A stretch of 64,000 nt of DNA from an uncultured Bacteroidota bacterium. Its GTDB lineage: Bacteria > Bacteroidota > Bacteroidia > Bacteroidales > JAAUTT01. Each line of letters begins with the position of its first letter. The first letter of the stretch is position 1. The DNA lies in assembly GCA_963846585.1 (NCBI GenBank), contig CAWJWO010000002.1:263592-327591 (forward strand), in the 5' to 3' direction. The position numbers and the translations under genes were made by a program. The notes below the pieces were generated by a model, which had not been told where the DNA came from, searched no databases, and saw only the letters and a program-made list of their open reading frames with translations. Shown here piece after piece: positions 11,815 to 47,558 of the stretch.

Positions 11815-12146
11815 CATTTTTGGACAGCAGATGAAACTAACTACTGGTTGTTTTAATTACCTAGTAATTGAACAACAATTTAATTTCTTGATCTGTTAAT
11901 TCAAAATTAATTCATTATATTACGTTTTAATAATTTTATAATCTGCTAATTTGGCCTTTCCCAGAATTTGTTATAGTAAATAATTACTCAAAAACTAATA
12001 TGCTATATAAAATATTGAAATATAATGGTCTATTGACAAGAATTACTGTTAACTTTCTCTATCTTGCAATAGACAAATTTTGAATTAAAATTAAATACTA
12101 TTTCTTTGAATTCCAAGAAAAAATAATTAAATTAACGTTAATAATA

Positions 12147-12156
12147 CCCCCCCCCC
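12147..12156. repeat. Homopolymeric C10 tract
   Basis: ataatacccccccccccttatt read directly: ten consecutive C in an otherwise extremely AT-rich spacer, about 230 nt upstream of the liu block. Confidence 0.9.
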
Positions 12157-12247
12157 TTATTATATATAATTGATTATATGTATATTATAAATATTAAGTA
12201 TGATAAATTGAATGATTATATATTAATATTAATTTTATATTAATAAC

Positions 12248-12318
12248 AAAACCTTATAAACCTTATAAACCTTTATTACTTAATCACCTAATCACTTTTT
12301 TTACTTACGACTTACGAC
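12248..12318. repeat. Intergenic tandem-repeat mosaic: (CCTTATAAA)n + (CTTAATCAC)n + (TTACGAC)2
   Basis: aaaccttataaaccttataaaccttta (12248-12274). acttaatcacctaatcact (12278-12296). ttacgacttacgac (12305-12318). Confidence 0.9.
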
Positions 12319-12387: not shown

Positions 12388-13995
12388 ATGGAAACTATAA
12401 AATCAAACATAAATACTAAATCCAAAGATTATAATAACAATGTAACTGAATATAAAAAACTCCTTTCTGATTATTATCAGCTTTTGAAAGAAATTCAATC
12501 TGGCGGTGATAATCAGGCGATAGAAAAGCATAAATCGAGAAATAAATTATTAGCCAGGGAACGTATTAATTTATTGGTAGATAATAACACCCCATTCCTG
12601 GAACTTTCATGTTTTGCTTCATTTGGACAATATAACGGAAAATTCCCTTCAGCCGGGATAATAACTGGCATAGGACTGATACATGGCCGCGAAACAATTA
12701 TAGTGGCCAACGATTCCACCGTTAAAGGAGGAACATATATTAAGGAGACTATTCGAAAACATATACGCGCCCAGGAAATTGCACTTGAGAATAAGCTTCC
12801 TTGTATATACCTGGTTGATTCAGGCGGTATATTCCTTCCTGAACAGGCAAAAGTGTTTCCGGACAGGTTCGATTTCGGGAGGATATTCTATAATCAGGCA
12901 CATTTATCTGCTGAGGGTATTCCCCAGATTTCAATAGTCATGGGCTCCTGTACCGCCGGTGGTGCATATATACCTGCAATGAGCGACGAAACTATTATAG
13001 TACGCGGTCAGGGAACTATTTTTTTAGGGGGGCCTCCGCTGGTAAAAGCCGCTACAGGTGAAATTGTTACAGCCGAAGAACTGGGAGGAGCCGAAATACA
13101 TACCTTTTTTTCAGGAGTTGCTGATCATATGGCAGACAATGATCAGCATGCCATTGAAATTTGCCGTAATATTTTTGAGACATTGCCAAAACCGGAAAAG
13201 TTTAACATAGACAGAACAAATTACGAAGAACCGGCTTTCCCATCTGAAGAATTATATGGTATTGTAAATGTGGATTTACGCAAACCTGTGGATCCGAGAG
13301 AAATTATAGCAAGAATTGTAGATGGCAGCAAATTCGCAGAGTTTAAGAGTCTTTATGGAACAACCTTAGTGACCGGTTTCGCAAGAATCATGGGATATCC
13401 TGTAGGCATTGTTGCAAATAACGGGGTTCTGTTCTCAGAATCATCCCTTAAAGGTGCACACTTTGTTGAACTTTGTAATTTCCGAAAAATTCCAATTGTA
13501 TTTTTACAAAATATAACGGGGTTTATAGTTGGCAAACAATATGAAAAAGCTGGCATAGCTCGCGACGGGGCTAAATTTGTACATGCAGTGGCCACTGCAA
13601 CGGTACCTAAGTTTACTATTATTTGCGGAGGTTCTTTTGGTGCGGGGAATTATGCAATGTCCGGCAGAGCGTACGATCCTGCATTCCTGTTTATGTGGCC
13701 AAATGCAAAGATTTCGGTAATGGGTGGCGAGCAGGCAGCTAATGTACTTGTTACAGTAAAGGAGGATCAGTCAAAATCCTCAGGGAAAGCACACAATAAA
13801 GATGAGTTATTAAAATTACATAAAAAAATTATGTCCGGATATAATGAAGAAAGTTCAGCATATTACAGTTCTTCAAGATTATGGGACGATGGTATAATTG
13901 ATCCTGCTGAAACCCGTAAAATATTGGCCCTGTGTATAGAAATAACACTAAACCGTAAGTTCCCCGCTCCAAAAAGTGGAGTGTACAGAATGTAA
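12388..13995 (+). CDS. Methylcrotonyl-CoA carboxylase beta subunit (acyl-CoA carboxyltransferase)
   Basis: 535-aa ORF, collinear with the MCCC2/LiuB type: GGAYIPAMSDETIIVRGQGTIFLGGPPLVKAATGEIVTAEELGGAEIH and GFIVGKQYEKAGIARDGAKFV. Sits in a liu-type gene context. Confidence 0.9.
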   Translation: METIKSNINTKSKDYNNNVTEYKKLLSDYYQLLKEIQSGGDNQAIEKHKSRNKLLARERINLLVDNNTPFLELSCFASFGQYNGKFPSAGIITGIGLIHGRETIIVANDSTVKGGTYIKETIRKHIRAQEIALENKLPCIYLVDSGGIFLPEQAKVFPDRFDFGRIFYNQAHLSAEGIPQISIVMGSCTAGGAYIPAMSDETIIVRGQGTIFLGGPPLVKAATGEIVTAEELGGAEIHTFFSGVADHMADNDQHAIEICRNIFETLPKPEKFNIDRTNYEEPAFPSEELYGIVNVDLRKPVDPREIIARIVDGSKFAEFKSLYGTTLVTGFARIMGYPVGIVANNGVLFSESSLKGAHFVELCNFRKIPIVFLQNITGFIVGKQYEKAGIARDGAKFVHAVATATVPKFTIICGGSFGAGNYAMSGRAYDPAFLFMWPNAKISVMGGEQAANVLVTVKEDQSKSSGKAHNKDELLKLHKKIMSGYNEESSAYYSSSRLWDDGIIDPAETRKILALCIEITLNRKFPAPKSGVYRM

Positions 13996-14341
13996 AAGGA
14001 AAGTAGGCAGAGAATGGAAGAAGGCAGAAGCAGTGGGACATGAAAAGACATGAAAAGACGTGAGACGTGAGACGTGAAAAGAAGACAGAAGGCAGAAGAC
14101 AGAAAAAAGATAAAAGATTTAAGGAAAAAGATTTGAGATTTTAGAATCTAGATTTTAGAATTGAGATTTATAAATATCAATCTGGTAAAATATATTAAAT
14201 CTTAAATCACCAATCGCAAATCTGGAATCTTAAATCAAAGAGTCTTGGCTCATGGTTCTTGGCTCTTGGCTCTGTTTTTACAACCAACAACTAAGCACTA
14301 AGCACTAAGCACTAAGCACTAAGCACTAAGCACTATATAAA
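13996..14341 (+). repeat. Composite mosaic repeat element, copy A (fills the MCCase-beta / hydratase spacer)
   Basis: Module order: purine-rich GGCAGAAG units, (GACGTGA)x3 at 14057-14077, GAAGACAGAAGGCAGAAGACAG, AGATTT/GAGATTT-rich core, agtcttggctcatggttcttggctcttggctctg at 14241-14274, caaccaacaa, then (CTAAGCA)x6 at 14291-14336, then ATG. Collinear with the reverse complement of 34108-34396. Confidence 0.85.
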
Positions 14342-15127
14342 ATGGACACATTCGAAACAATCAAAGTTGAATTAAACGAAAAAGTCGCTACCATTTACCT
14401 AAACAGGCCTGAAATACATAATGCATTTAATCATAAAATGGTACTTGAGATAATTTCTGCACTAAAGTCTGTTGCAGATAATCAAAAACTAAGAGTTTTG
14501 GTAATTCGTGGCAATGGAAAATCTTTTTGTTCCGGGGCTGACTTAAACTGGATGAAGGAAGTTGTTGAATTCGATTTTGAAAAAAATTACAATGAAAGTC
14601 TGTTATTAGCTAATTGTTTCCAAACGATTTATCATTTCCCTGTACCGGTAATTTCTTTTGGACATGGCTCAGTAATTGGTGGCGGTAATGGATTTCTGGC
14701 TACCTCAGACTTTGCAATATGTACTAAAAATACTCATTTTGCATTTACTGAAGTAAATATCGGGTTGGTGCCGGCTGTAATTTCCTATTTTATTATCAGG
14801 CGTATGGGAATAAATAAAACTAAAGAATTAATGCTCTCCGGACAACAATTCAATGGAATTGAAGCTGAACATTGGGGGCTTGTAAATTATGCGATTGACG
14901 AGTCTGATACTGAGAATTTTATAAAATCCACTATCCAAAGATTAATTGAAAAAAGTCCACAGGCGTTAAAAAGAACAAAAAATTTACTTAATAACAATGA
15001 TTTATTATTCGATGAAAATGCATTTTTAAAAGAATCGGCAATTATAATTTCTCAGGCACGTGTTTCAAAGGATGGGCAGGAAGGAATGCGATCATTTTTA
15101 GAAAAAAGACGGCCGGTATGGGATTAG
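14342..15127 (+). CDS. Enoyl-CoA hydratase/isomerase family protein (methylglutaconyl-CoA hydratase by context)
   Basis: 261-aa crotonase fold: IYLNRPEIHNAFN, GNGKSFCSGADLNWM, FGHGSVIGGGNGF, EGMRSFLEKRRPVW. Lies between the two MCCase subunit genes. Confidence 0.85.
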   Translation: MDTFETIKVELNEKVATIYLNRPEIHNAFNHKMVLEIISALKSVADNQKLRVLVIRGNGKSFCSGADLNWMKEVVEFDFEKNYNESLLLANCFQTIYHFPVPVISFGHGSVIGGGNGFLATSDFAICTKNTHFAFTEVNIGLVPAVISYFIIRRMGINKTKELMLSGQQFNGIEAEHWGLVNYAIDESDTENFIKSTIQRLIEKSPQALKRTKNLLNNNDLLFDENAFLKESAIIISQARVSKDGQEGMRSFLEKRRPVWD

Positions 15128-15179: not shown

Positions 15180-17174
15180 ATGTTAAATTTTAGTAAAATA
15201 TTAATAGCAAACCGGGGAGAAATTGCACGGAGAATAATTCGTACAGCCCGCGAAATGGACTACAAATGTGCAGTTATTTATTCTTCCGGGGAAATAAATG
15301 CTGATTTTGTATCCGAAGCTGATGAAGCATACGATTTAGGTAATGGCAACATTCATGAAACTTACCTCAATATAACAAAAATAATTGACATTGCCCTCAG
15401 AAACGGGATTCAGGCAATTCATCCCGGTTATGGCTTTTTATCTGAAAATTATAAGTTTGCAAAAGCTTGCGAAGAAAATAACATTGTATTTATTGGGCCA
15501 ACAAGTGAAAATATAAAATTGATGAGCCAAAAAACTGCAGCCCGTGAATTTGTAAAATCACTGGGAATTCCACTTTTGGAGTCAGTTCAGGGAAACAGTC
15601 CGGAAGAATTATTGAAAAAGTCAGGGAAACTTAAATATCCTGTTATAGTAAAGGCAGATACCGGTGGTGGTGGCAAAGGCATGCAAATAGTTAAAAAACC
15701 TGAAGAACTATCAAAAATACTTGAAATTTCCCAACGGGAAGCTTTGGCATATTTTGGTGATTCAAATGTTTATCTGGAAGAATATCTTGAATATCCCCGA
15801 CACATAGAAGTTCAGATATTAGGTGATTGTTATGGCAATATTATTCATCTTTACGAAAGGGAATGTACAATTCAAAGGAGACACCAAAAAATTATTGAAG
15901 AAGCTCCTTCTCTTTGCCTGTCAGATAATTTAAGAAATAAACTGTTGGAGGCATCCTTGACTATTGCCCGGAAAATGAAGTATTTGAATGCCGGAACAAT
16001 TGAGTTTTTGGTTGATGAAAATCAGAATTTCTATTTCCTCGAAATGAATACCAGAATTCAGGTCGAACATCCGGTTACTGAAAAAATTACGGGAATAGAC
16101 CTGGTCAGGGAACAACTGAATATTGCTTCCGGAAACCGGCTTAATTTTAAACAGGAAGATATTTCGGTCAATGGCCATGCTATAGAAAGCCGTATATATG
16201 CTGAAAACCCTTTTAATGAATTTTTGCCTTCAGTGGGATCAGTAATAAAATATCAGGAACCAACAGGCAGGTCTGTAAGAATTGATTCTGCATTATCAGG
16301 CCCTGCCCTGATATCTTCGGATTTTGACCCAATGATTGCCAAGGTAATCTCAGGTGATTTGAACAGGGAAAGCGCCAGGCTTAACCTTATCAGGTTTCTG
16401 CAGCAATATATTATACATGGAATTGATACAAATATTCCATATCTGATTGAGATTTTAAATAATCCAGGATTTATACAAAACTCATATTCAACATCATTTT
16501 GTAAAGATTCCAAAAATATGCTTCAGGCTTCGTATATTAAAAAAATGCATGGATTATCTATAGAACTTATAACTGCCGCTTTCCTGATTTTTACTTTCCC
16601 GTTTTTAATAAATCATGTCAATACAAATGATAACAGGGTATGGAAAAGTTTAGGATATTGGAGAAATATAATGGTTACAGAAATAAATATATTGGATGTC
16701 AATTATAACATAACATTTAAAAAGCAAGGCACAGATAACTTTACATTTTGTATTAATGAAAAAGTCCCGTTACTGGTGAAAGGCCGGGAAAAGAACGGAA
16801 GGGTAGATTTTTTATTCTCCGGTCAAAGACATGTAGCTTTTATTTCATCTTTAAGTGATATTTATTATTTATCTATTAATGGAAATACATATACAATCCG
16901 GCGTAATGATATCACAAAAACAAAATTTGTAAAAGAAAGCGGCCTGAATTCATTTAACCAACAAAACAAGATATTGGCCACCATAAATGGCAAGATTATA
17001 AAAATGAATGTAAAAATGAATGAAAAAGTAAACAAAGGAGATATATTAATGGTTGTTGAATCAATGAAAATGGAAAACTACATTCTTGCTCCTAAAGGGG
17101 GAAAAATCACTAATATTTGTGTTAACACAGGTGACCTGGTAAAAGGCAGGGATGTGTTGGCCATTTTAACGTAA
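15180..17174 (+). CDS. Methylcrotonyl-CoA carboxylase alpha subunit (biotin carboxylase + BCCP domain)
   Basis: 664-aa ORF. Biotin carboxylase N-terminus KILIANRGEIARRIIRT, ATP-grasp GGGGKGM, EMNTRIQVEHPVTE, and a C-terminal biotinyl-lysine motif VESMKMEN. Confidence 0.9.
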   Translation: MLNFSKILIANRGEIARRIIRTAREMDYKCAVIYSSGEINADFVSEADEAYDLGNGNIHETYLNITKIIDIALRNGIQAIHPGYGFLSENYKFAKACEENNIVFIGPTSENIKLMSQKTAAREFVKSLGIPLLESVQGNSPEELLKKSGKLKYPVIVKADTGGGGKGMQIVKKPEELSKILEISQREALAYFGDSNVYLEEYLEYPRHIEVQILGDCYGNIIHLYERECTIQRRHQKIIEEAPSLCLSDNLRNKLLEASLTIARKMKYLNAGTIEFLVDENQNFYFLEMNTRIQVEHPVTEKITGIDLVREQLNIASGNRLNFKQEDISVNGHAIESRIYAENPFNEFLPSVGSVIKYQEPTGRSVRIDSALSGPALISSDFDPMIAKVISGDLNRESARLNLIRFLQQYIIHGIDTNIPYLIEILNNPGFIQNSYSTSFCKDSKNMLQASYIKKMHGLSIELITAAFLIFTFPFLINHVNTNDNRVWKSLGYWRNIMVTEINILDVNYNITFKKQGTDNFTFCINEKVPLLVKGREKNGRVDFLFSGQRHVAFISSLSDIYYLSINGNTYTIRRNDITKTKFVKESGLNSFNQQNKILATINGKIIKMNVKMNEKVNKGDILMVVESMKMENYILAPKGGKITNICVNTGDLVKGRDVLAILT

Positions 17175-17178
17175 AAAA

Positions 17179-17357
17179 GTGCTTAGTGCTTAGTGCAAAG
17201 TGCATAGTACAGCAATATGCCGGCATTAAAAGCCTTCAAAAAATAACGTGCTAAAATAGTGAATTTAATATTATAAAAACAAGTCACATAAGAAGATTAT
17301 ACAACATTACAACATTACAACATTACAACATTACAACATTTACAACTTTACAACATT
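17179..17357 (+). repeat. TAGTGCW array (17179-17210) and (ACAACATT)n array (17301-17357)
   Basis: gtgcttagtgcttagtgcaaagtgcatagtac starts 5 nt after the MCCase-alpha stop. acaacatt x5 followed by tacaactttacaacatt lies 43 nt upstream of the ACAD start. Confidence 0.9.
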
Positions 17358-17399: not shown

Positions 17400-18545
17400 A
17401 TGGATATTTATTCAAATGGTGCTCATGAGACGTTAAGACAAAAAGTTAAAAATTTTGCTGAAAATGAAGTTCGGCCCAAGGCACGTGAACTGGATGAAAA
17501 AGAACAATTTTCTCCTGAATTGAGCCTTAGAATGGGTGAACTGGGGTTATTCGGGCTTACAATTCCAAAAAAATACGGGGGACAGGGATATGATTATCTT
17601 TCATTAATTATAGCTGTGGAAGAACTTGCCAGGGTGGATAGCTCCCAGGCAGCCATTTTAGCCTCACATAATTCGCTTGGTATTGGTCCAATATATAATT
17701 ACGGAACTGAGGAACAACGCAAAAAGTATTTACCACAACTTTGTAATGGAAAAGCACTTTGGGCCTTTGGACTTACTGAAAACAATGCCGGATCAGATTC
17801 CCGCAGTACCGAATCCATCGCCTTATTAGATAACGATCATTGGATTATAAACGGAACAAAGATTTTTATTTCCAACGCTTCTGCACCAATTTCGGCTGGC
17901 GTTACTATCCAGGTAATTACTGGCCAAAACGATGGGCAAAAAGAGCTTTCCACAATTATTGTTGAACAGGGAACAAAGGGATATCGTGCCGAAAAAATTC
18001 ATGGAAAAATGATGTGGCGCGCCATCGATACTGCACGTTTGTATTTCGATAATGTAATTGTTCCTAAAGATAATTTATTGGGAGGATTAGGCAAAGGATC
18101 GGGGATTATGCTTGAAACTTTAGATTCAGGCAGATTATCAATAGCAGCTATGGGACTCGGTTTAGCAACCGGAGCCTTCGAAATGGCTATGAATTATTCA
18201 CATAAACGATGGCAATTTGGAAAACCTATTGCCAAATTTCAATCTATTGGCTTCAAATTAGCAGATATGGCTACCAAAATAGAACTGGCAAGAAATATAC
18301 TTTATAAAGCATGCTGGCTTAAAGATTCTAACCAACCTTTTGCAAAAGAAGCTGCCATGGCAAAACTATATTGTTCCGAAATTGCAAAAGAAATTGCTGA
18401 TGAATCACTTCAAATACATGGAGCCTATGGACTAATGCGCGAATACGATATTGAACGGTTTTACCGCGATCAAAGATTATTGCAAATTGGTGAAGGTACT
18501 TCAGAAATACTGAGAATAGTTATATCAAAACATCTTGGAATATAG
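17400..18545 (+). CDS. Acyl-CoA dehydrogenase (isovaleryl-CoA dehydrogenase-like by context)
   Basis: 381-aa ORF with ACAD motifs: WAFGLTENNAGSD, QFGKPIAKFQ, ERFYRDQRLLQIGEGTSEI. Substrate cannot be assigned from sequence alone. Confidence 0.85.
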   Translation: MDIYSNGAHETLRQKVKNFAENEVRPKARELDEKEQFSPELSLRMGELGLFGLTIPKKYGGQGYDYLSLIIAVEELARVDSSQAAILASHNSLGIGPIYNYGTEEQRKKYLPQLCNGKALWAFGLTENNAGSDSRSTESIALLDNDHWIINGTKIFISNASAPISAGVTIQVITGQNDGQKELSTIIVEQGTKGYRAEKIHGKMMWRAIDTARLYFDNVIVPKDNLLGGLGKGSGIMLETLDSGRLSIAAMGLGLATGAFEMAMNYSHKRWQFGKPIAKFQSIGFKLADMATKIELARNILYKACWLKDSNQPFAKEAAMAKLYCSEIAKEIADESLQIHGAYGLMREYDIERFYRDQRLLQIGEGTSEILRIVISKHLGI

Positions 18546-18549
18546 AATT

Positions 18550-18580
18550 TAGTGCATAGTGCTTAGTGCATAGTGCTTAG
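18550..18580 (+). repeat. TAGTGCW heptamer array
   Basis: tagtgcatagtgcttagtgcatagtgcttag, 5 nt after the ACAD stop. Confidence 0.9.
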
Positions 18581-18848
18581 GAGTAAGAGATTAGTATATT
18601 TATAAATTTTAAAACATTTTAATAGACTTGTAACTTGAAACCAGTAACTATTTACATACTACTTACTAATGCGAATTAAGAGTTAAAATATTTATACTTA
18701 TTATCTAATAATTAGCAGAATATCATTTACATTAGCCAACTTTAACCCCAACCCCTTAAAAAGCATAGCCGTCAGGTTATGTCTATATAGAGCAGAATGA
18801 TAGATATTTAGTGTAAATGTAATAAAATATTAGTGTAATTAAGAGCGT

Positions 18849-19337
18849 ATGTCAACGACTGGATTTGTATATATTATGACCAATAAGAACAAAACAACTT
18901 TATATATTGGGGTTACAAACAATTTATGCAGAAGAATACATGAGCATAAAAATCATTTGATAAATGACACTTTTACAGATAAGTACAATATTGAATACTG
19001 TATTTATTACGAAGAATTTCAATATTTTGATTTGGCAATACAAAGAGAAAAAGAATTAAAAAAGTGGAACCGTCAAAAGTTTATTTCGAGTGACGCGAGA
19101 AAACTCAAGATTAACAAAAAGAACCCCGAATGGAAAGTGCTGGTAACAGAGCGTGGCTTTGTTCGGAATAATAAATCATTTTCTCAACATGTTTCGGACA
19201 TAGTCAATGAATTACAACCAATTAAAGAGATTCCTCCCTGCGGTCGGAATGACGACCAGCAGAATTGTGGCGTTGCTGGAGGTGAAGAGAGTGCGGCAAA
19301 GCCGCACTCTCTTCACCTCCAGCTCTCTGACCAATAA
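18849..19337 (+). CDS. GIY-YIG nuclease family protein (COG2827-like) with atypical C-terminal extension
   Basis: N-terminal GFVYIMTNKNKTTLYIGVTNNLCRRIHEH...YYEEF...AIQREKELKKWNR is the GIY-YIG core. The last roughly 60 codons run through a GC-rich hairpin region and are probably not a native domain. A 9-codon in-frame insert (ISSDARKLK, about 19082-19108) overlaps a repeat-motif copy at 19080-19106. Confidence 0.75.
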   Translation: MSTTGFVYIMTNKNKTTLYIGVTNNLCRRIHEHKNHLINDTFTDKYNIEYCIYYEEFQYFDLAIQREKELKKWNRQKFISSDARKLKINKKNPEWKVLVTERGFVRNNKSFSQHVSDIVNELQPIKEIPPCGRNDDQQNCGVAGGEESAAKPHSLHLQLSDQ

Positions 19338-19369
19338 CGACAGTCATTTCGAGCGAAGCGAGAAATCTC
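19227..19369 (+). other. GC-rich compound stem-loop region at the 3-prime end of the GIY-YIG ORF
   Basis: The outer 27-nt arms 19227-19253 (gagattcctccctgcggtcggaatgac) and 19343-19369 (gtcatttcgagcgaagcgagaaatctc) are 22/27 complementary. They enclose a 6-bp hairpin (19256-19279) and a perfect 23-bp stem (19275-19323). Confidence 0.6.
19275..19323 (+). other. Perfect 23-bp inverted repeat with a 3-nt loop
   Basis: gctggaggtgaagagagtgcggc-aaa-gccgcactctcttcacctccagc read directly. GC-rich, inside an AT-rich locus. Confidence 0.9.
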
Positions 19370-19514
19370 AAATAAAGTATTATAATTGTATATAAGCATT
19401 TTACAAGCGTTAACCTGACGGCTATGCCTTTTTAAGGGGTTGGGGTTAAAAAATACTAAAATGAATAAATATTGTCTTGAATAATTATAACAATAATTAA
19501 ATCCTTAATTCGCA

Positions 19515-21875: not shown

Positions 21876-22811
21876 GTGATAATTTCCGCCAAATCATATT
21901 ATTCCAATGGAAAACTCCTGTTAACCGGTGAATATCTTGTAATGTACGGCGCTAAAGCGTTGGCAATTCCTGTAAAATTTGGTCAATCAATTAGTATTAC
22001 TGAACATTCCGGAGATAATAAATTGGTTTGGGTAGCTAAAGAATATGGAAAAAATTGGTTTAAAGCAGTTTTTTCTTCCAAAACGCTTACTGTTGAAGAA
22101 TATTCAGATATACAAATTGTAAAACGTTTGCAGAAGATTATAAATGAGGCAAAATTATTAAACCAACAATTTATTAAAGAAGATTCCGGTTATTTGATTG
22201 AAACAAATTTAAACTTTAACAGATACTGGGGGTTGGGTACAAGTTCAACATTAATATCCAATATTGCCCTTTGGGCAAATATTGATCCATTTTGGCTTAA
22301 CCGGAAAGTTTCAAATGGATCAGGTTACGATATTGCCTGTGCTGAATCGGCATCATCAATTATTTATCAACTCAATAAACAAATTCCTGTCATTAAAAAT
22401 GTCTCTTTTAATCCAATATTCAGGGACAAAATATATTTTATATACCTTGAGAAAAAACAAGATTCCGCTGCCAGTATAGAAATCTTAAATCAAAAACAAT
22501 CATTATTTTTAAAAGAAATAAAACAAATATCTGACCTGACGGAAAAGTTTTTAAATGCCGGCTCAATTGAAGAAGTTATCCCTGTTATTAAGGCTCATGA
22601 AACAATCATCAGTTCACTATTAAATATCCCTGCTATTCAAAATACATTATTCCCGGATTTTACAGGTATAATAAAATCTCTTGGTGCCTGGGGCGGAGAT
22701 TTTATTATGGCAATTTCTTCAATGAATAAAAATTCGGTTGAACAATACTTCAGGGATAAGGGTTTCCCTGTAATAATACCTTTTGACGAAATGGTACTGA
22801 ATAGTGCTTAG
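21876..22811 (+). CDS. GYDIA-family GHMP kinase (putative phosphomevalonate kinase of the Bacteroidota MVA pathway)
   Basis: 311-aa ORF with GTG start. GKLLLTGEYLVMYGAKALAIPV, GHMP motif GLGTSSTLISN, and the signature GSGYDIACA. The last two codons and the stop lie inside the TAGTGC repeat array. Confidence 0.7.
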   Translation: MIISAKSYYSNGKLLLTGEYLVMYGAKALAIPVKFGQSISITEHSGDNKLVWVAKEYGKNWFKAVFSSKTLTVEEYSDIQIVKRLQKIINEAKLLNQQFIKEDSGYLIETNLNFNRYWGLGTSSTLISNIALWANIDPFWLNRKVSNGSGYDIACAESASSIIYQLNKQIPVIKNVSFNPIFRDKIYFIYLEKKQDSAASIEILNQKQSLFLKEIKQISDLTEKFLNAGSIEEVIPVIKAHETIISSLLNIPAIQNTLFPDFTGIIKSLGAWGGDFIMAISSMNKNSVEQYFRDKGFPVIIPFDEMVLNSA

Positions 22812-22867
22812 TGCATAGTGCATAGTGCATAGTGCTTAATGATTAGTGCTAAATGATTAGTGCTTAG
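22802..22867 (+). repeat. TAGTGCW heptamer array (about 9 units, degenerate at the distal end)
   Basis: tagtgcttagtgcatagtgcatagtgcatagtgcttaatgattagtgctaaatgattagtgcttag. Contains the stop codon of the GYDIA kinase gene. Confidence 0.9.
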
Positions 22868-24952: not shown

Positions 24953-25072
24953 AAATTTGAAAATGTGTAAATTTGAAAATGCAACCTGTAACCTGAAATA
25001 TGTAACCTGTAACCTGCAACTAAGCACTATGCACTAAACACTATGCACTATGCACTATGCACTATGCACTAT
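24953..25072 (-). repeat. Mosaic: (AATTTGAAAATG)x2 + (AACCTGT)n + CTAAGCA/CTATGCA array
   Basis: 24953-24981 has two aatttgaaaatg copies. 24983-25019 aacctgtaacctgaaatatgtaacctgtaacctgc. 25020-25072 ctaagcactatgcactaaacactatgcactatgcactatgcactatgcactat, overlapping the stop of the minus-strand HAMP-GAF gene. Confidence 0.9.
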
Positions 25073-28067: not shown

Positions 28068-28877
28068 TTGAAAAAAATGTTGCAGTTTTACCGGATGAAT
28101 TATGTGACCCCTAAAAAAAGCCTGGGACAGCATTTCCTGAAGGACCGGAATATTGCCCAAAAAATTGTGTCTGGCATACTGCCCGGTAACATAGCAACTG
28201 TTTTAGAAATCGGTCCCGGAATGGGTATACTTACAGGATTCCTCTTGGAAAACCCTGCCTATACTACCTATGCAGTTGAAATAGACCGTGAATCAATAAA
28301 TTATCTTTCTGCTAACTATCCGGAAATTACAAACAGGATAATTTCAGGAAATTTTCTGGACCTTGAACTTTCGGAAATTGTTCCAATCCCAATGATAATT
28401 ATTGGCAATTTCCCCTATAATATAGGATCTCAAATTTTTTTTAAAATATTGGATAACAAAAATATAGTTCAGCAAGTAGTATGTATGGTGCAGAAGGAAG
28501 TAGCTGAGCGCATTGCCTCAAGGCCATCCTCCAGGACCTATGGAATTTTAAGCGTGTTGCTGCAGGCGTTTTATAATATAGAATATCTTTTTACCGTGAA
28601 CGAACATGTTTTCTCTCCTCCCCCTAAAGTAAAATCAGCTGTTATAAGGCTTACAAGAAACAATACCAAAGAATTGGCATGTGATGAAAGGCTATTTTTT
28701 AAAGTAGTTAAAACTTCATTTAACCAGCGGCGAAAAACCATTCATAATTCCTTGAAAAGTATAGTGAAAGAACATCCCGAAAATGATATTTTCCGTAAAA
28801 GGCCAGAACAATTGAATGTTGCTGAATTTGTTACATTAACAAATATAGTTAATCAGTGCTTAGTGCATAGTGCTTAG
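28068..28877 (+). CDS. rsmA: 16S rRNA (adenine1518-N6/adenine1519-N6)-dimethyltransferase
   Basis: PKKSLGQHFL, LEIGPGMGILT, GNFPYNIGSQI, FNQRRK. The real start is probably an ATG at 28077 or 28095. The last six codons (CLVHSA) and the stop are encoded by the TAGTGC array. Confidence 0.9.
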   Translation: MKKMLQFYRMNYVTPKKSLGQHFLKDRNIAQKIVSGILPGNIATVLEIGPGMGILTGFLLENPAYTTYAVEIDRESINYLSANYPEITNRIISGNFLDLELSEIVPIPMIIIGNFPYNIGSQIFFKILDNKNIVQQVVCMVQKEVAERIASRPSSRTYGILSVLLQAFYNIEYLFTVNEHVFSPPPKVKSAVIRLTRNNTKELACDERLFFKVVKTSFNQRRKTIHNSLKSIVKEHPENDIFRKRPEQLNVAEFVTLTNIVNQCLVHSA

Positions 28878-29028
28878 TTGTTGGTTGTTAGTTGTTAGTT
28901 GTTAGTTGTTGGTTGTTAGTTTTTAGTTGTTGGTTGTTAGTTGTTAGGAAATTATACAACCTTTACAACCTTTACAACCTTTACAACCAATTTCAATTTT
29001 ATAAACCTTATAAACCAATTTTCAAATT
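28855..29028 (+). repeat. Four-module mosaic: TAGTGCW, (TTAGTTG)~10, (TACAACCTT)x3.7, (TTATAAACC)x2
   Basis: 28855-28877 agtgcttagtgcatagtgcttag. 28874-28947 ttagttgttggttgttagttgttagttgttagttgttggttgttagtttttagttgttggttgttagttgttag. 28955-28988 tacaaccttx3+tacaacc. 28999-29016 ttataaaccttataaacc. 29017-29028 aattttcaaatt. Confidence 0.9.
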
Positions 29029-29135: not shown

Positions 29136-30044
29136 ATGAAACCAACATTATTAATACTGGCCGCAGGAATGGGAAGCCGTTATGGCAGCCTGAAACAGGT
29201 AGATCCTGTTGGACCATCGGGTGAAACTATATTGGAATATTCAGTTTACGATGCTATAAGGGCAGGTTTTGGAAAAGTTGTTTTCGTTATCAGAAAGGAC
29301 CTGGAAAAAGATTTTAAAGAAATATTTATTCTAAAATTACAAAAACATATAGATGTTAGTTATGTGTTTCAGGAATTAGATATGGTCCCAAAAGGTATTC
29401 CGATCCCTGTTGATAGAGTAAAGCCTTGGGGCACAGGACATGCAGTATTAGTTGCATCTTCAAAAATAAAAGAACCATTTGCTGCTATAAATGCTGATGA
29501 TTATTATGGTGTTGATGCTTACAAAAAGATGTCTGTTTACCTGTCGGGACTTGGCAATTCAGAATCAACCTATGCAATGGCCGGTTTTGACCTCAACAAT
29601 ACGCTTTCTGAACATGGATTAGTGTCCCGTGGCATTTGTGAAATTGATAAAAACTCCTTTTTAAAAACTGTAGCAGAACGGTCAAAAATTGGCCGTGATA
29701 ATAATGGTGTAGGTTATCAGGATGAAAACGGAAAGTTTGTTTATGTTGATGAAAAATCAATAGTTTCAATGAATTATTGGGGATTTACACCTATGTTTTT
29801 TTCGCAGCTTGAAGAACAATTTCATTCTTTTATTTCAGCAAACTTTAGTAATCTTAAAGCGGAAATCTTTCTGCCAATGGTCATTGACGATCTTATAAAA
29901 TCTAAGATTGCAAAAGTTAAGGTATTACATAGTTCCGATCTTTGGTGTGGAGTAACCTATAAAGAAGACAAGCCTCTGGTAGTAACTAAAATTAAAGATT
30001 TGGTCAATGCAGGGGTCTATCCGAAGAATCTTTGGCTGGAATAG
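29136..30044 (+). CDS. Sugar-phosphate nucleotidyltransferase family protein (NTP_transferase fold)
   Basis: N-terminal LILAAGMGSRYGSLKQ glycine-rich NTP loop, then KPWGTGHAV and INADDYYG. The track ORF starts at 29091, but the ATG at 29136 gives the conserved N-terminus. Confidence 0.7.
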   Translation: MKPTLLILAAGMGSRYGSLKQVDPVGPSGETILEYSVYDAIRAGFGKVVFVIRKDLEKDFKEIFILKLQKHIDVSYVFQELDMVPKGIPIPVDRVKPWGTGHAVLVASSKIKEPFAAINADDYYGVDAYKKMSVYLSGLGNSESTYAMAGFDLNNTLSEHGLVSRGICEIDKNSFLKTVAERSKIGRDNNGVGYQDENGKFVYVDEKSIVSMNYWGFTPMFFSQLEEQFHSFISANFSNLKAEIFLPMVIDDLIKSKIAKVKVLHSSDLWCGVTYKEDKPLVVTKIKDLVNAGVYPKNLWLE

Positions 30045-30186
30045 TGATGAGGTGATTAAGTGATTAAGTGATTGAGTGATTGAGTAATTAATATTATAAT
30101 TAAAATAAACCTTATAAACCTTATAAACCTTATAAACCTCATAAACGAATAAACTAATATACCTTATCAATTTACAATTTACAATT
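30044..30186. repeat. Mosaic: (GTGATTRA)x6 + (CTTATAAAC)n + (CAATTTA)x2.7
   Basis: 30044-30091 gtgatgaggtgattaagtgattaagtgattgagtgattgagtaattaa. 30105-30154 ataaaccttataaaccttataaaccttataaacctcataaacgaataaac. 30168-30186 caatttacaatttacaatt. Confidence 0.9.
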
Positions 30187-30191: not shown

Positions 30192-31832
30192 ATGAGCAAT
30201 TTATCTTATTCAAACGGAATCAGTTCTATCCCTTTAAAGGGAGAAACAATTAGCGAATGTTTACGGAAGACAATTGAAAAATATGGTCATCGCGAAGGAT
30301 TAGTAGTCGTTTCACAGAATTACAGGGCAACCTACCTTGAGCTGTGGGAACAGATAGAGGAAGTTGCTAAAAGTTTATTAGCCTATGGCATTAAGAAGGG
30401 AGACAGGGTGGGGATATGGGCCCCAAACCGGTTTGAATGGGTATTGGTTCAATTTGCAACCGCTCGTATTGGAGCTATAATGGTTAACATTAATCCTGCC
30501 TATAAATCGTCGGATTTGAAATATGCCCTTGAACAAAGTAAAGTTAACCTTTTGATAACTGCACACTATTTCCGGAAAACCGATTATGTTGAAATATTAA
30601 ACCATATCAGGCCGGAATGCGAATATCCATATCGTACGATTATTCTTGAAAAAGATTGGGAAAAATTCATTCTGGCAGGTAAAAAAATATCTGAAATAGA
30701 GCTTTCAGAACGTGAAAATAATTTACAATTCGACGACCCTATTAACATTCAATATACTTCGGGAACAACAGGGTTCCCAAAAGGTGCAACCTTATCCCAT
30801 CATAACATTCTTAATAACGGGTTTTTTATAGGTGAACGAATGTTATTCAGCGAAAATGACAGGGTTTGTATTCCGGTGCCTTTTTATCATTGCTTTGGTA
30901 TGGTGTTGGGAAACATGGCATGTATAACACATGGTTCATGTATGGTAATTCCAGGTGAGTTTTTCGAACCTGAATCAGTGTTAAAAACTGTTGAAGATGA
31001 GAAATGTACGGCATTATACGGTGTCCCTACAATGTTTATTGCCGAACTTGAGAATCCCAATTTCAATAAATATATTTATTCCACACTCCGGACAGGTATT
31101 ATGGCAGGTTCCCCCTGTCCTATTGAAACAATGAAACAGGTAGTCAGCAAAATGCATATAAGCCAGGTAACAGTGTGTTATGGTATGACAGAAACTTCAC
31201 CCGTATCTACACAAAGTTTTGCCGATGATATTATTGATAAAAGAGTATCTACAGTTGGGAAAGTCCATCCCCATCTTGAAATAAAAATTATTGATCCTGA
31301 ATCAGGATATATAGTCCCGGTCGGACAGAGGGGTGAAATATGCACCCGCGGCTATTCAGTTATGATAGGTTATTGGGATATGCCTGAAGAAACTGCTAAT
31401 GTAATTGATCGGAACCGGTGGATGCATACCGGTGATTTAGGCGTTATGGACGAAGAAGGATATGTTAAAATTGTAGGACGTGCAAAGGATATCATTATTC
31501 GTGGCGGGGAAAATATTGCTCCCCGGGAAATTGAGGAATTTTTGATGACACATCAGGCCATATCCGATGTTCAGGTAATTGGTGTCCCTGACGCTAAATA
31601 CGGTGAGGAAGTAATGGCCTGGGTTCAACTGCGTTCAGGTTTTGAAGTTACATTTGAAGAACTTCACGAATATTGCAAAGGACAAATTGCCACCTATAAA
31701 ATACCAAAATACTGGAAGTATACTGATCAATTTCCAATGACCATAAGTGGCAAAGTAAGAAAAATAGAAATGCGTGAAATATCAATTAAAGAATTAGGGC
31801 TGCAGGATGCAGCAGATATCTTAACAGCTTGA
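30192..31832 (+). CDS. AMP-binding acyl-CoA synthetase (medium/long-chain fatty-acid--CoA ligase-like)
   Basis: 546-aa ORF: AMP motif [57 protein letters not shown]. Confidence 0.85.
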
Positions 31833-31877
31833 TTTTTACTGATACTAACTAATTCCAGTTCTGATAAATTTAACCTT

Positions 31878-33590
31878 ATGAACAACAAGAATTGGAAAAT
31901 AAAATCTCCGGGCAGTATATCATCATTAGAACATTTAATAAATGTTTTAGGGGTTGACAGAACTATTGCAAATCTTCTTGTTAAAAGAGAAATTACTTCA
32001 TTTGAAGAAGCTAAAGCCTTTTTCAGGCCAGATTTATCGCTGTTACATGACCCGTTTTTAATGAAAGACATGGATACTGCGGTTAACCGGATTAGCCTGG
32101 CAATTGAAAATAATAGAAAAATACTTATTTACGGGGATTATGATGTCGATGGCACTACTTCAGTAGCAATGGTTTATTCATTCTTTAAAAAATTAACAAG
32201 GGAAATACTTTATTATATTCCAAACCGTAATTCGGAAGGTTATGGAATATCTTTTAAAGGAATCGAATATGCTGTTGAAAATAATGTAGACCTGATTATA
32301 TCTCTGGATTGTGGCATTAAAGCAATTGAAAAAGTAAGTTACGCGAAAAAAAACAATATAGACTTTATAATCTGCGATCATCACTATCCTGGCGACATCC
32401 TGCCTGATGCAATGGCTGTGCTTGATCCTAAACGCACTGACTGTTTATATCCCTACAAGGAGCTATCCGGTTGCGGAGTAGGATATAAATTATTACAGGC
32501 TTATTGTATAAGCAAACAAATATCTCTGGATGTACTGGAAAATTTTCTTGATTTGGTTGCTGTCAGTATCGCCTCTGATATAGTGCCCATAACCGGTGAA
32601 AACAGGATTTTAGCTTATTTCGGATTAATTCAGCTTACCAAATCCCCTTGTCCCGGATTAAAATCAATTATAAAAATTTCCGGTCTTGAAAGCAAAGAAA
32701 TTACCATTGATGATATTGTATACAAAATAGGGCCCAGGATCAATGCTGCAGGAAGAATTGAAAATGGCATAAAGGCAGTGGAATTATTGGTTTCAGATGA
32801 CGAAGAACACGCTTTTTCATTGGTTGGCAAAATCGATAATTATAATAATACACGAAAAAACATTGACAGTAATATTACCGCGGAAGCACTGAAAATAATA
32901 GTTAATGATCCAAATTTAAAGGAAAACAATTCCATTGTATTGTTCAACCCAAACTGGCACAAAGGTGTTATTGGTATTGTAGCATCGCGGTTAATTGAAT
33001 ATTATTACAGGCCTACAATTATACTTACTGAATCAAACGGCTTGGCGTCAGGTTCGGCACGTTCGGTGGAAGGTTTTGATCTTTACAGGGCTATTTCCGC
33101 GTGCAGTGACTTATTGGAAAATTTTGGCGGACACATGTTTGCAGCCGGGTTAACACTTAAGGTTGAAAATGTGCCTGCCTTTAAGGAAAGGTTTGAGAAA
33201 GTAGTGTCCTCCACAATTAAATGGGATCAGTTGGCTCCAACAATCGAAATTGATGATGAAATTGAATTAAAGGATATTACTTTAAAATTCTACCGTATTT
33301 TAAAACAATTCCAACCTTTTGGGCCGGGTAATTTGTCGCCGGTATTTCTTACAAAAAACGTATCAGATAATGGAAGTGCCAGGATTGTCGGAAATAATTC
33401 CGACCACCTGAAACTTGAACTTATACAGGAATCTGACCCTTTTCATAAATACCCGGCAATTGCATTTCAAATGTCAGAACATTTTAGCTATATCAAAAAC
33501 GGGAATCCTTTTGATATTTGCTATTCAATTGAAGAAAATGCATACAGGGGAAAAACCACACTTCAATTGCGGTTAAAAGACATAAAATAA
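31878..33590 (+). CDS. recJ: Single-stranded-DNA-specific exonuclease RecJ
   Basis: 570-aa ORF with DHH-family motifs: IYGDYDVDGTTS, SLDCGI, ICDHHYP, GGHMFAAG. Confidence 0.9.
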   Translation: MNNKNWKIKSPGSISSLEHLINVLGVDRTIANLLVKREITSFEEAKAFFRPDLSLLHDPFLMKDMDTAVNRISLAIENNRKILIYGDYDVDGTTSVAMVYSFFKKLTREILYYIPNRNSEGYGISFKGIEYAVENNVDLIISLDCGIKAIEKVSYAKKNNIDFIICDHHYPGDILPDAMAVLDPKRTDCLYPYKELSGCGVGYKLLQAYCISKQISLDVLENFLDLVAVSIASDIVPITGENRILAYFGLIQLTKSPCPGLKSIIKISGLESKEITIDDIVYKIGPRINAAGRIENGIKAVELLVSDDEEHAFSLVGKIDNYNNTRKNIDSNITAEALKIIVNDPNLKENNSIVLFNPNWHKGVIGIVASRLIEYYYRPTIILTESNGLASGSARSVEGFDLYRAISACSDLLENFGGHMFAAGLTLKVENVPAFKERFEKVVSSTIKWDQLAPTIEIDDEIELKDITLKFYRILKQFQPFGPGNLSPVFLTKNVSDNGSARIVGNNSDHLKLELIQESDPFHKYPAIAFQMSEHFSYIKNGNPFDICYSIEENAYRGKTTLQLRLKDIK

Positions 33591-33612
33591 TAATGTCTTC
33601 TTTTCTAATAAC

Positions 33613-34107
33613 TTAAGACATTTTCAGGTAAGTAATAAAGGAATATGGATACATATGCCTTTCATCCATAGGATGCTCCTCTGATTCTATAATTTTCCAA
33701 TTTTCAGGATCAATTTCAGGGAAAAAAGTATCTGCTTTAAAGGTCGAATGTACTTTAGTAATATATAGCTTCTGTGCAAGGGGGTAAAATTGTTTATATA
33801 CCGATGCTCCGCCACAAATAAAGTTTTCCTTCTGATCATCACATTTTAACATAACATCCTCGATAGAATAAGCCATTAAACAATTATCGATCTGTTCTCC
33901 GGGCCGGTCACTGATTACTATATTGACCCTTCCAGGCAGAGGCCGGAATGGCAATGAATAATATGTATTTTTACCCATAATAATAGTATGTCCGCCTGTA
34001 ATTCTTTTAAATCGTTTTAAGTCTTCCGGCAGATGCCAAAGTAGTTTGTTGTCCTTTCCTATTGCATTGTTTTCATCAATAGCTGCTATTATGGATATCC
34101 TTTTCAT
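33613..34107 (-). CDS. folA: Dihydrofolate reductase
   Basis: 164-aa ORF: ISIIAAIDENNAIGKDNKLLWHLPEDLKRFKRIT, GHTIIMGKNTY, GRVNIVIS, GGASVY. Confidence 0.9.
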   Translation of the reverse strand: MKRISIIAAIDENNAIGKDNKLLWHLPEDLKRFKRITGGHTIIMGKNTYYSLPFRPLPGRVNIVISDRPGEQIDNCLMAYSIEDVMLKCDDQKENFICGGASVYKQFYPLAQKLYITKVHSTFKADTFFPEIDPENWKIIESEEHPMDERHMYPYSFITYLKMS

Positions 34108-34396
34108 TATAAAATAGTGATTAGTGCTTAGTTGTTAGTTGCAAAAACAGAGCCAGGAGCCAAGAACCAGGAGCCAAGACTTTATGATGATTCTAGATTT
34201 AATATTTTAATAGTCTTTCTAAATTGTAAATCTTAAATCTCAAATCTGGAATCTCAAATCTTTTATCTTTTTTCTGTCTTCTGCCTTCTGTTTTCTGATT
34301 GCTGTCTTCTTTTCACGTCTCACGTCCCACGTCTCACGTCCCATATCTTGGTCTTGGTTCCTGGCTCTTGGCTCTTGGTTCCAACCTGAAATTACA
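34108..34396 (-). repeat. Composite mosaic repeat element, copy B (fills the thyA / folA spacer)
   Basis: The reverse complement reads ggaaccaagagccaagagccagg..., (GACGTGR)x4, gaaaagaagacag...cagaaggcagaagacagaaaaaagataaaagatttgagatt..., aagtcttggctcctggttcttggctcctggctctgtttttgcaactaacaactaagcactaatcacta, then the ATG of folA. This is collinear with copy A. Confidence 0.85.
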
Positions 34397-35191
34397 TTAA
34401 ATCGAAATCTCTCCTTTTATATGCGGATGCGGACTATAATTTTCAAGTATAAAATCATCGAATTTGAAATCAAAAATAGATTTTACTTCGGGATTCAGCT
34501 TAAGTTTTGGCAATGGCCTTGGATCCCTTGTTAACTGAAGGATAACCTGCTCAACATGATTAAGGTAAATATGAGCATCGCCTAAAGAGATAATAAGTTC
34601 CCCAGGCTGAAGATCTGTTACCCTTGCAACCATATGCAAAAGAAATGCATATGAAGCAATATTAAATGGTACCCCCAAAAACACATCAGCACTTCGTTGA
34701 TACATCTGACAAGATAATTTTCCGTCACCAACATAAAACTGGAACAGAATATGACAGGGTGGCAGTGCCATATTATCAAGTTCGCCGACATTCCATGCAC
34801 TTACAATATGCCTTCTCGAATCAGGATCTTTTTTAATTGATTCAATAACTTTCGAAATCTGGTCAATATGCTGTCCGTTAGCAGTTGGCCATGATCTCCA
34901 TTGGTGGCCATAGATTGGGCCAAGATTGCCGAGATCATCTGCCCATTCATCCCAAATTGTTATGCCATTTTCATTAAGATATCGGGTATTTGTAGATCCT
35001 TGCATAAACCATATCAATTCGTGTAAAATCGATTTTATATGCAACTTCTTAGTAGTAAGCAATGGGAAACCTTTGGATAAATCGAATCGCATCTGGTACC
35101 CAAAAATGCTGATAGTGCCTGTACCGGTCCTATCAGTCTTTTTTATCCCTCTGGCAAGTACATGGTCAAGTAAATCAAGGTATTGCTTCAT
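34397..35191 (-). CDS. thyA: Thymidylate synthase
   Basis: 264-aa ORF: [54 protein letters not shown]. Confidence 0.95.
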
Positions 35192-35246
35192 GTAGTAAAT
35201 TAGTTATTATTGTTCACTAAAATGTAAAATAAATAAAATTTTACGA

Positions 35247-35771: not shown

Positions 35772-35934
35772 GCGAATATTTTTATTTATATTAACCAGGT
35801 TTTAAATTATTATTTTTATTCAATAAGGAACAAATATCATATATTACAATGAAAAAAATCAGGATGTTGCTAAATAAATATTAAAATGTTAAAAAAATAT
35901 CTGTAAAAAATTAATCTTTAACCTTTCAAAGTTT

Positions 35935-37373: not shown

Positions 37374-37440
37374 TAATATTATTTAACAGATTTTAATAAT
37401 CTATTTTGAATTAATTCCTTATATTTAAACGATTTTTTAA

Positions 37441-43512: not shown

Positions 43513-43537
43513 TATATAACCATAATACTTTTCAAAT

Positions 43538-47555: not shown

Positions 47556-47558
47556 CTA

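Follow-up and report, generated by a model that had tools for sequence, protein, structure and literature searches.

This analysis concerns a composite tract built of short tandem repeats that occurs twice in a stretch of 64,000 nucleotides (hereafter the window; GC content ~33%) of contig CAWJWO010000002.1, from the metagenome-assembled genome (MAG) of an uncultured Bacteroidota bacterium. Each copy lies in the spacer between two neighbouring genes on the same strand. Spacer A (13996-14341, plus strand, 346 bp) separates a carboxyl transferase gene of the methylcrotonyl-CoA carboxylase (MCCase) beta type (12388-13995) from a gene for an enoyl-CoA/methylglutaconyl-CoA hydratase (14342-15127), in a cluster that continues on the plus strand with a biotin carboxylase carrying a biotinyl domain (15180-17174) and an acyl-CoA dehydrogenase (17400-18545). 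Spacer B (34108-34396, 289 bp) lies on the minus strand between thyA, encoding thymidylate synthase (34397-35191), and folA, encoding dihydrofolate reductase (33613-34107). Pfam matches bear out the identities given to the genes on either side of both spacers in a preliminary description of this DNA.

The two spacers share a tract of ~250 bp. When spacer A was compared with the whole window by BLASTN with the low-complexity filter switched off, spacer B was its sole long match (positions 61-312 of A against 34334-34115; E = 6e-40, 155 bits), the remaining matches being to single repeat modules at no more than 72 bits. In a gap-aware global alignment of A with the reverse complement of B, 212 of 234 aligned positions are identical (90.6%). 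Two exact blocks, one of 25 nt (14064-14088, equal to 34302-34326 on the minus strand) and one of 36 nt (14085-14120, equal to 34256-34291 on the minus strand), cross non-periodic junctions between arrays, and further exact blocks of 15, 13, 11, 11, 13, 13 and 16 nt are collinear between the copies. Since the blocks at non-periodic junctions are identical and stand in the same order, A and B, judged by their alignment, share descent and not merely repeat units. The preliminary description had proposed that A is collinear with the reverse complement of B, and this stands: every shared block that it quoted was found, in the order given, and pairwise alignment, which it had named as a possible refutation, shows a collinear similarity that goes beyond the sharing of low-complexity units. 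Its placing of the start of the similarity just after the upstream stop codon does not hold, as homology instead sets in at a TGGGAC that lies 38 nt inside A and 53 nt inside B. What precedes it is unshared and amounts to 37 nt in A and to 52 nt, with a (GAGCCAA)n arm, in B. Within the tract the copies differ chiefly by whole repeat units gained or lost: the unit ACTAAGC is present in 6.6 copies in A and about two in B, a 10-nt unit GACATGAAAA is found in A only, an 18-nt insert is found in B only, and B has a deletion of ~23 nt in one hairpin arm.

Both copies are made of tandem-unit modules, as had been described: Tandem Repeats Finder (TRF) detects arrays of period 7 with 3-6.6 copies, at least seven of them in A and at least six in B. 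Read from 5' to 3', the common layout begins with C-poor, purine-rich (GACGTGA)n and (GAAGACA/GGCAGAAG)n arrays followed by an A-rich junction, continues with an (AGATTTN)n arm, a loop and a complementary (NAAATCT)n arm, and ends with a (TCTTGGC)n array closing in TGGCTCTGTTTTT, a G-poor CAACYAACAAC(TAAGCAC)n segment, five to seven A/T bases and the ATG of the downstream gene. The base at position -3 to this ATG is A in both spacers. The tract was described as non-coding, and indeed no plausible open reading frame (ORF), tRNA or canonical intrinsic terminator was found in either spacer.

In spacer A, the private 5' part (13996-14032, plus strand) is purine-rich (AAGGAAAGTAGGCAGAGAATGGAAGAAGGCAGAAGCAG) and does not align to B. 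It is similar to the beginning of the 107-bp spacer found at the orthologous site of a relative (contig L122; GAAATGGAGGAAGGAAGGCAAAGGAAGG), and because of this similarity it is probably the ancestral spacer of the carboxylase-hydratase locus. A stretch of 12 nt in it, AGAAGGCAGAAG, also matches a module from the interior of the composite. Copy A proper spans 14033-14307 on the plus strand, homologous to 34115-34344 on the minus strand by BLASTN and global alignment, with an nhmmer profile placing it at 14034-14320. Its C-poor 5' arrays, (GACATGAAAA)2.7, (AGACGTG)3.1 and (AGAAGAC)3.6 by TRF (14037-14108), include the 25-nt exact block, and the 36-nt junction block that is identical in both copies reads ACAGAAGGCAGAAGACAGAAAAAAGATAAAAGATTT (14085-14120). 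An AU-rich imperfect hairpin is predicted at 14130-14236, its two arms corresponding to TRF arrays at 14129-14169 and 14195-14237; the 3' arm holds CAAATCTGGAATCT (14217-14230), a word common to A and to the orthologous spacer of a relative discussed below. After the (TCTTGGC)n array with its closing TGGCTCTGTTTTT junction (14241-14279; TRF 14243-14273, with exact blocks common to B) comes the G-poor leader (14281-14341), composed of CAACCAACAAC, (ACTAAGC)6.6 (TRF 14290-14335, 100% matches) and TATAAA, directly before the hydratase ATG at 14342.

Copy B (34115-34344, minus strand) has its modules in the same order as A. Upstream of it lies a private 5' arm, (GAGCCAA/GGAACCA)n at 34346-34382 (minus strand), which has no counterpart in A and is inversely complementary to the (TCTTGGC)n array in the 3' part of B itself (34150-34181). 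The central hairpin of B (34185-34256, minus strand; predicted folding, z = -2.0) has its 3' arm shortened by the ~23-nt deletion, and its 5' arm retains AGATTCCAGATTTG, the complement of the CAAATCTGGAATCT word kept in the 3' arms of A and of the relative. The TGGCTCTGTTTTT junction and the G-poor leader of B (GCAACTAACAACTAAGCACTAATCACTATTTTATA) were placed by alignment at 34108-34155 (minus strand), adjoining the folA ATG at 34107. An isolated (TCTTGGY)n module at 37336-37376 (plus strand), matched by positions 13-54 of B at 92.9% over 42 nt and by TRF at 37344-37374, is a third occurrence of that module and not a copy of the composite.

The composite is one instance of a repeat system that runs through the intergenic DNA of this genome. 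In the window TRF reports 115 rows, period 7 predominating, of which 35 are period-7 rows with at least 2.5 copies. Those of period 7-9 cover 1750 of 6427 intergenic bp (27%) against 192 of 56917 coding bp (0.3%), and 21 of the 32 spacers of at least 40 bp in the window hold at least one array. These arrays are polar with respect to genes. Those of the unit TAGTGCW lying within a few nucleotides of annotated stop codons are in the sense orientation in eight cases of eight, with a ninth (61604-61652) placed after the apparent stop of a small unannotated ORF; the complementary (WGCACTA)n stands before start codons in all three of its arrays. Likewise, (TTAGTTG)n is in the sense orientation after stops in two of two arrays, and its complement (CAACTAA)n precedes starts in six of six. 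The same bias is seen in base composition: among 29 informative genes in each case, 22 have fewer G than C in the 40 nt upstream of the start, and 22 have more G than C in the 40 nt downstream of the stop (p = 0.008 for both). C-poor units thus follow stops and G-poor units precede starts, and the composite conforms to this rule, base counts shifting from G-rich to C-rich in the same direction along A and B alike.

The preliminary description had called the element orientation-constrained. Its observation that both copies have the same gene-relative orientation is correct; two copies would agree by chance half of the time and are no proof, and it is the polarity of arrays across the window that shows the constraint. 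The shared orientation of A and B is what this general stop-side and start-side polarity predicts.

Boundary arrays are found elsewhere in the window at 17175-17204, 18550-18577, 22802-22864, 25023-25071 (minus strand), 28854-28943, 41079-41150, 43402-43515, 47561-47700, 55363-55519 and, as above, 61604-61652; some of the (TAGTGCW)n and (TTAGTTG)n arrays themselves provide the stop codon. Spacers that hold both members of a complementary pair form a spacer-wide hairpin, as at 55317-55516 and 47453-47701. A second recurring composite, in which (AGTGATTA)n is joined to (ATAAACCTT)n, is present in at least four spacers (1816-1930, 30043-30146, 37889-37984 and 12249-12296). At 37889-37984 it is reverse-complemented on the plus strand, and in every copy the order of the arrays follows the stop-side/start-side rule. 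Its recurrence indicates that other two-module combinations are also reused in this genome.

We considered whether these units belong to a repeat vocabulary shared across phyla, an idea suggested by the finding of four tandem TAGTGCW units in over 110 contigs, which came from many phyla and ranged from 29 to 74% GC. We dropped it on seeing that, in IMG/VR, 9 matches for TAGTGCW compared with 5, 14 and 4 for three control heptamers of matched composition; the distribution of this unit is generic bacterial heptamer-array background. In some contigs from distant phyla (L038, L072, L082, L101 and L112, from Planctomycetota and other MAGs), (AAGCACT)n arrays adjoin (AACCAAG)n and (AACTAAG)n arrays, units that also occur in the window.

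The preliminary description asked for empty sites in relatives, and the comparison supplies them. At the thyA-folA junction the two genes overlap (TAATG) in one relative (L006, whose FolA is 76% identical to that of the window), and are separated by 17 nt (L010, FolA 69%), 25 nt (L166, FolA 70%) and 49 nt (L165, FolA 80%) in three others. A fifth relative, the MAG GCA_964513035.1 (loci L007-L009, FolA 75%), has a 207-nt spacer there with the layout of B: a GACAG-rich start, (GATTTAA)n, (TTAAATC)n and an end in CACTAAGCGCTATTTTAAAATG. The words that it has in common with the composite are GACAGAAAAA, GATTTAAGATTT and CAAATCTGGAATCT, the last of these shared with A only. As B keeps the complement of CAAATCTGGAATCT in its 5' arm, B lost this segment after A and B separated. 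The tract is thus patchily distributed at thyA-folA, present in the window and in the relative at 75% FolA identity and absent from those at 80%, 76%, 70% and 69%.

The carboxylase-hydratase spacers of relatives measure 79, 107 and 169 bp and lack the composite. That of GCA_964513035.1 (L122, 107 bp) begins like A's private 5' part; in two other relatives the spacer is 79 bp long with AAGCACTAACAACTATGCAC just before the ATG, and in another its 169 bp consist of unrelated (ATGACAA)n arrays. With every compared spacer at this site free of the composite, and a diverged copy at thyA-folA in one relative, the composite at the carboxylase-hydratase site is most likely a gain in the window's own lineage, and we infer that the thyA-folA copy is older, or at least common to another species. 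Two side observations concern repeats in these relatives: (GACAAAT)8 fills the carboxylase-hydratase spacer of L126 (L126:3853-3910) and differs by an indel between the strains L126 and L127, and the end of a poly(A) polymerase-like gene at L122:2071-2117 is overlapped by (GGGACGTGAAAA)-like units akin to the composite's 5' module.

Each spacer is probably transcribed within an operon mRNA together with the genes that flank it. The Bacteroidota -7 box (TAnnTTTG) is absent from spacers A and B, and such boxes stand 23-63 nt upstream of several operon-first genes, including, at 45 nt, the carboxyl transferase gene that opens the cluster around A. This is consistent with the expectation of co-transcription in the preliminary description. 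Matches to a sigma-70 promoter model were set aside, as that model is not applicable to Bacteroidota. In the 714-bp region upstream of the same carboxyl transferase gene, a run of ten C (ataccccccccccttatt) at 12140-12160 could be either a slippage-prone tract or a long-read homopolymer error.

Folding predictions single out the middle of the tract. The core hairpin of A has a predicted energy of -29.3 kcal/mol (z = -4.3 against dinucleotide shuffles), and that of the L007 ortholog reaches the same z of -4.3. Spacer B as a whole folds at -77.4 kcal/mol (z = -5.2); in this fold the arms at 34346-34382 and 34150-34181 pair into a long outer stem. In the minimum-free-energy fold the G-poor leader of A is mostly unpaired, as are the last 29 nt of B.

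We propose, as the explanation that we hold to be reasonably probable, that A and B are paralogous copies of one ordered heptamer-array tract, multiplied by homology-driven copying and forming a hairpin and a leader within the mRNA. The older copy would be that at thyA-folA, and A would have arisen in the window's lineage by a homology-driven copy event, whether ectopic gene conversion, recombination or template switching during replication, and not by transposase-mediated insertion. Such an event could have been seeded on the left by a purine-rich GAAGGCAGAAG-type module already present in both spacers, and on the right by AGCACTA units beside the start codon. For the left seed, the 12-nt AGAAGGCAGAAG match in A's private part to the composite's interior is the evidence; on the right, relatives have AGCACTA-type units beside the hydratase start codon. 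After copying, the two tracts would have diverged by ~9% substitution and by gains, losses and deletions of repeat units.

As to what the tract might do, it would be transcribed within the operon mRNA and would separate genes that in relatives overlap or lie 17-49 nt apart. REP (repetitive extragenic palindromic) hairpins modulate mRNA decay or read-through in enterobacterial operons. Perhaps the AU-rich hairpin predicted mid-tract, which in B would be enclosed by a GC-richer outer stem ending at a U-run, could similarly slow 3'-exonucleolytic decay or partly stop transcription. The last ~60 nt of the tract, G-poor, A/C-rich, free of AUG, predicted to be unpaired and with A at -3, resemble the type of leader that would suit the Shine-Dalgarno-ignoring ribosomes of Bacteroidia, and the tract may thereby replace translational coupling by independent initiation. 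Indeed, in Bacteroidetes mRNA structure and an A at -3 modulate the initiation of translation, and AUG is depleted in the neighbourhood of starts (Baez 2019, PMC6847099). The conserved orientation would fit such a role, because an inverted copy would place G-rich, structure-prone sequence before the start codon. A functional role of this kind is weakly supported.

Several points weigh against this explanation, in its account of origin or of function. The copy mechanism is inferred solely from the shared flanking modules, no intermediate or donor having been observed. The patchy presence of the tract at thyA-folA fits ancestral presence followed by loss, and fits repeated gain equally well. The copy count covers 64 kb of the source genome, and a larger family would favour a mobile element. 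On the functional side, the fold of the whole of spacer A is not significant (z = -1.3), and the antisense strands fold about as stably as the sense strands, with no consistent asymmetry, so that the hairpin cannot separate a role at the RNA level from one at the DNA level. Moreover, part of the 3' arm is gone from B and the tract is missing from most relatives, two facts which argue that any function is dispensable.

Among the alternatives, the one that survives best, unlikely as we judge it, is that the tract is a specific structured cis-regulatory RNA (an attenuator, a processing site or a protein-binding leader) selected for its fold and recruited twice. A, B and the ortholog at 75% FolA identity all have the central hairpin, with z = -4.3 in two of the three; the intercistronic position is conserved, as is the tail before the ATG (CACTAT followed by A/T-rich sequence, with A at -3). 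However, this hairpin consists of complementary tandem arrays, in which homogenisation of the repeats keeps the pairing without any selection for it, and the equally stable antisense strand, the partly deleted arm of B and the several relatives without the tract are hard to reconcile with a fold under selection. Rfam covariance models run against both spacers gave no match at the gathering thresholds and none on the sense strand at E<=1; the sole match at E<=1, to a snoRNA on the antisense strand of B, was dismissed as meaningless. Nor do operons for leucine catabolism and for thymidylate and folate synthesis have an obvious common regulatory logic, and three sequences are too few for covariation.

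Somewhat less probable still is a non-autonomous mobile element, either MITE-like (MITE, miniature inverted-repeat transposable element) or a mosaic of the BOX or BIME kind (BIME, bacterial interspersed mosaic element), inserted in a fixed orientation, with A and B being two of many copies. The preliminary description had leaned towards such a dispersed element, and several features do recommend it: the copies are 91% identical and lie between unrelated gene pairs, the flanking genes showing no similarity; filled and empty thyA-folA sites are patchy among relatives; B has inverted terminal arrays (34346-34382 against 34150-34181); and the modules GGGACGTGAAAA and TCTTGGY occur at other loci of the genome and of a relative. 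The marks of transposition are nonetheless missing from both copies. The shared segment has no terminal inverted repeats, its TGGGACRTGA start not being complementary to its AGCACTA(AT-rich) end (GACGTGA... against ...AGCACTA). No direct repeat brackets it in A or B: the target-site duplication sought by the preliminary description is not there, and comparison with empty or short sites (the TAATG overlap of L006, the 49 nt of L165) likewise reveals no duplicated target. Its ends are ragged and situated within repeat arrays, and the inverted outer arrays are found in B only, the 5' arm being missing from A. The composite, made of 7-nt tandem units, contains no imperfect palindromic units of the ~35-nt REP type.

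A family of copies did not appear either. The BLASTN count that had been called for, run on the 64-kb window, returned two copies of the composite. An nhmmer profile built from A, B and L007 found no further composite in the window or in the other contigs that were compared. The junction pattern TGGCTCTGTTTTTNCAACNAACAAC had no match in the GTDB representative genomes, a collection without the source genome; the pattern GACAGAAAAAWKGATWWAAGATTT in JGI metagenomes, again without the source genome, matched the known ortholog and gave two unrelated chance matches, one of them in a coding region; and neither pattern had a match in IMG/VR. With no terminal inverted repeats, no target-site duplication, no REP units, ragged ends and two copies found in 64 kb, the suggestion of a dispersed MITE-like or BIME-like element is not borne out.

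The only Y1 transposase gene in the window (153 aa, 53051-53512; Pfam Y1_Tnp, NCBIfam IS200/IS605) speaks against this alternative too, as the palindromes at its ends are unrelated to the composite. On either side of the gene stand 46-nt inverted repeats (53000-53045 and 53556-53601) with GC-rich palindromes (CACAGGGCAACGCCCTGTG) that are found nowhere else in the window, and the whole of 53000-53601 looks like an IS200-type or RAYT-like unit (RAYT, REP-associated tyrosine transposase). A separate candidate insertion lies downstream of the cluster that contains spacer A. Here an ORF of 162 aa with a GIY-YIG domain (18849-19337), located between the acyl-CoA dehydrogenase gene and the one that follows, has on its two sides the halves of a 39-nt inverted repeat (18741-18779 and 19411-19449), and further inverted repeats lie outside these. 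In the relative L126 only ~65 nt separate the dehydrogenase gene from the next called gene, too little to hold this ORF, and the comparison suggests that 18741-19449 is a small inserted cassette.

Two remaining explanations are highly improbable. Convergent assembly of both spacers from common heptamer modules under the same polarity, with no copy event, would draw on the recurrence of (AGCACTA)n, (CAACTAA)n and (TCTTGGC)n in many spacers and on the grammar common to them, with C-poor units on the stop side and G-poor units on the start side, but independent assembly is effectively refuted by the junctions: exact blocks of 36 and 25 nt cross non-periodic sequence, further blocks follow in order at 90.6% identity, and other array-rich spacers of the window reach at most 72 bits where A and B reach 155. 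An assembly artefact, in which repeat-induced collapse or chimerism created the second copy, is conceivable for a MAG, since short-read contigs break within arrays and ~190 nt in the middle of A are without independent confirmation, but the copies differ by ~9% and several indels, each has a private flank joined to unique genes, and both have support from other assemblies. Spacer B is 100% identical across its whole length in a second assembly from another sample (L002; ENA ERZ25039501 contig_21778). In three runs, short-read contigs agree exactly with the gene-proximal ends of each spacer, over 119 nt at the start and 35 nt at the end of A and over the final 76 nt of B; one of them (L121) breaks off within the 36-nt block common to A and B, as expected for a block that occurs twice in the sample. 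L002, which represents the same population, is 100% identical to the window over 30613-35817 and from ~35817 (compared with L002:1-1290) diverges into a DDE transposase gene, which indicates an insertion sequence or rearrangement polymorphism beside the thyA cluster.

It is useful to set the composite beside known small repeats. BOX elements of Streptococcus pneumoniae have the form boxA-boxB(n)-boxC, with boxes of 45-59 nt, defined A and C ends and more than 100 copies per genome. Like them, the composite is modular, non-coding and intergenic, with variable internal tandem modules between partly complementary ends and a predicted stem-loop in the transcript. A and B have different numbers of internal units and a conserved 3' end. 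Unlike them, it was seen in two copies, its 5' ends differ between A and B, and its modules are microarrays of 7-nt units. REP/BIME sequences consist of ~35-nt imperfect palindromic REP units in alternating orientation and are associated with RAYT transposases. The composite resembles these in lying between genes that are probably co-transcribed, in its mosaic build and in potential hairpins that could stabilise the upstream mRNA, and differs in having no REP palindrome, no alternating pairs and no link to the Y1 transposase at 53051-53512. With MITEs it shares small size, the absence of coding capacity, AT-richness and presence at some orthologous sites but not others; there are, however, no terminal inverted repeats common to both copies, no target-site duplication and no unit-length family detected. 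The kind to which it does belong is that of intergenic heptamer direct repeats, or long simple sequence repeats (LSSRs), of which the cyanobacterial short tandemly repeated repetitive (STRR) heptamers, reportedly described by Mazel et al. in 1990, are another case.

The resemblance to that kind is close. The composite is made of tandem 7-nt units (5-11 nt, typically 7, in the kind as a whole), is near-exclusively intergenic like the rest of the window's arrays, and draws on several unit families within one genome; its units stand forward within a few to ~40 nt of starts and as the reverse complement just after stops, the orthologous spacers of relatives are short or hold other repeats, and short-read contigs end in the arrays. 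In the Bacteroidetes genome of Flexibacter litoralis, intergenic heptamers likewise lie forward before starts and reversed after the stop codon (MacGregor 2015, PMC4679880). The same article, which deals with repeats of the TAACTGA type, describes for Bacteroidetes spacers that hold several heptamer arrays, contigs that end inside repeats, and orthologous spacers of close relatives that are repeat-free. It also summarises the LSSRs of Mrazek et al. 2007 and cites the statement that in most genomes no class of repeat is more abundant than heptanucleotides, with which the result for the control heptamers agrees. Long simple sequence repeats and heptamer direct repeats have been described in Bacteroidetes, cyanobacteria and Beggiatoaceae. 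For Elizabethkingia the article reports intergenic assemblages of heptamer repeats that are nearly identical to one another and whose flanking ORFs were also similar (MacGregor 2015, PMC4679880), whereas the duplication here is between spacers whose flanking genes are unrelated. Other differences from the heptamer repeats are that the unit of similarity is an ordered composite of ~250 bp, with at least six array types and conserved non-periodic junctions; that its arrays are nested inverted pairs able to form a hairpin; and that its units are GACGTGA, GAAGACA, AGATTTN, TCTTGGC, CAACTAA and AGCACTA as against TAACTGA. A search of the literature for AAGCACT and other specific repeat units gave no result.

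Catalogues of heptamer arrays exist for several bacterial phyla. The locus offers a natural experiment on the function of such arrays and on their mode of spread, with one ordered tract of ~250 bp placed in two unrelated operons, with empty, short and filled states of both sites in relatives, and with a strict stop-side and start-side polarity of the arrays across the window. There is a practical side as well, in that arrays of this type break short-read assemblies exactly at gene boundaries. A broader and more speculative view, which we hold to be quite improbable as it stands, is that the composite belongs to an unrecognised class of polarity-constrained intercistronic heptamer-array cassettes that spread as ordered units via homology at shared modules. 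Gene pairs that overlap or are translationally coupled, thyA-folA in relatives among them, would thereby become cistrons with a hairpin between them and with initiation of their own; were this true, operon expression would be rewired genome-wide in Shine-Dalgarno-blind Bacteroidia. Should the tract have no part in decoupling genes or in providing a leader, the finding would be a well-documented case of repeat-mediated copying between spacers. If, on the other hand, it does decouple the genes around it and supply a structure-free leader, the polarity of heptamer arrays would be tied to Shine-Dalgarno-independent initiation in Bacteroidia.

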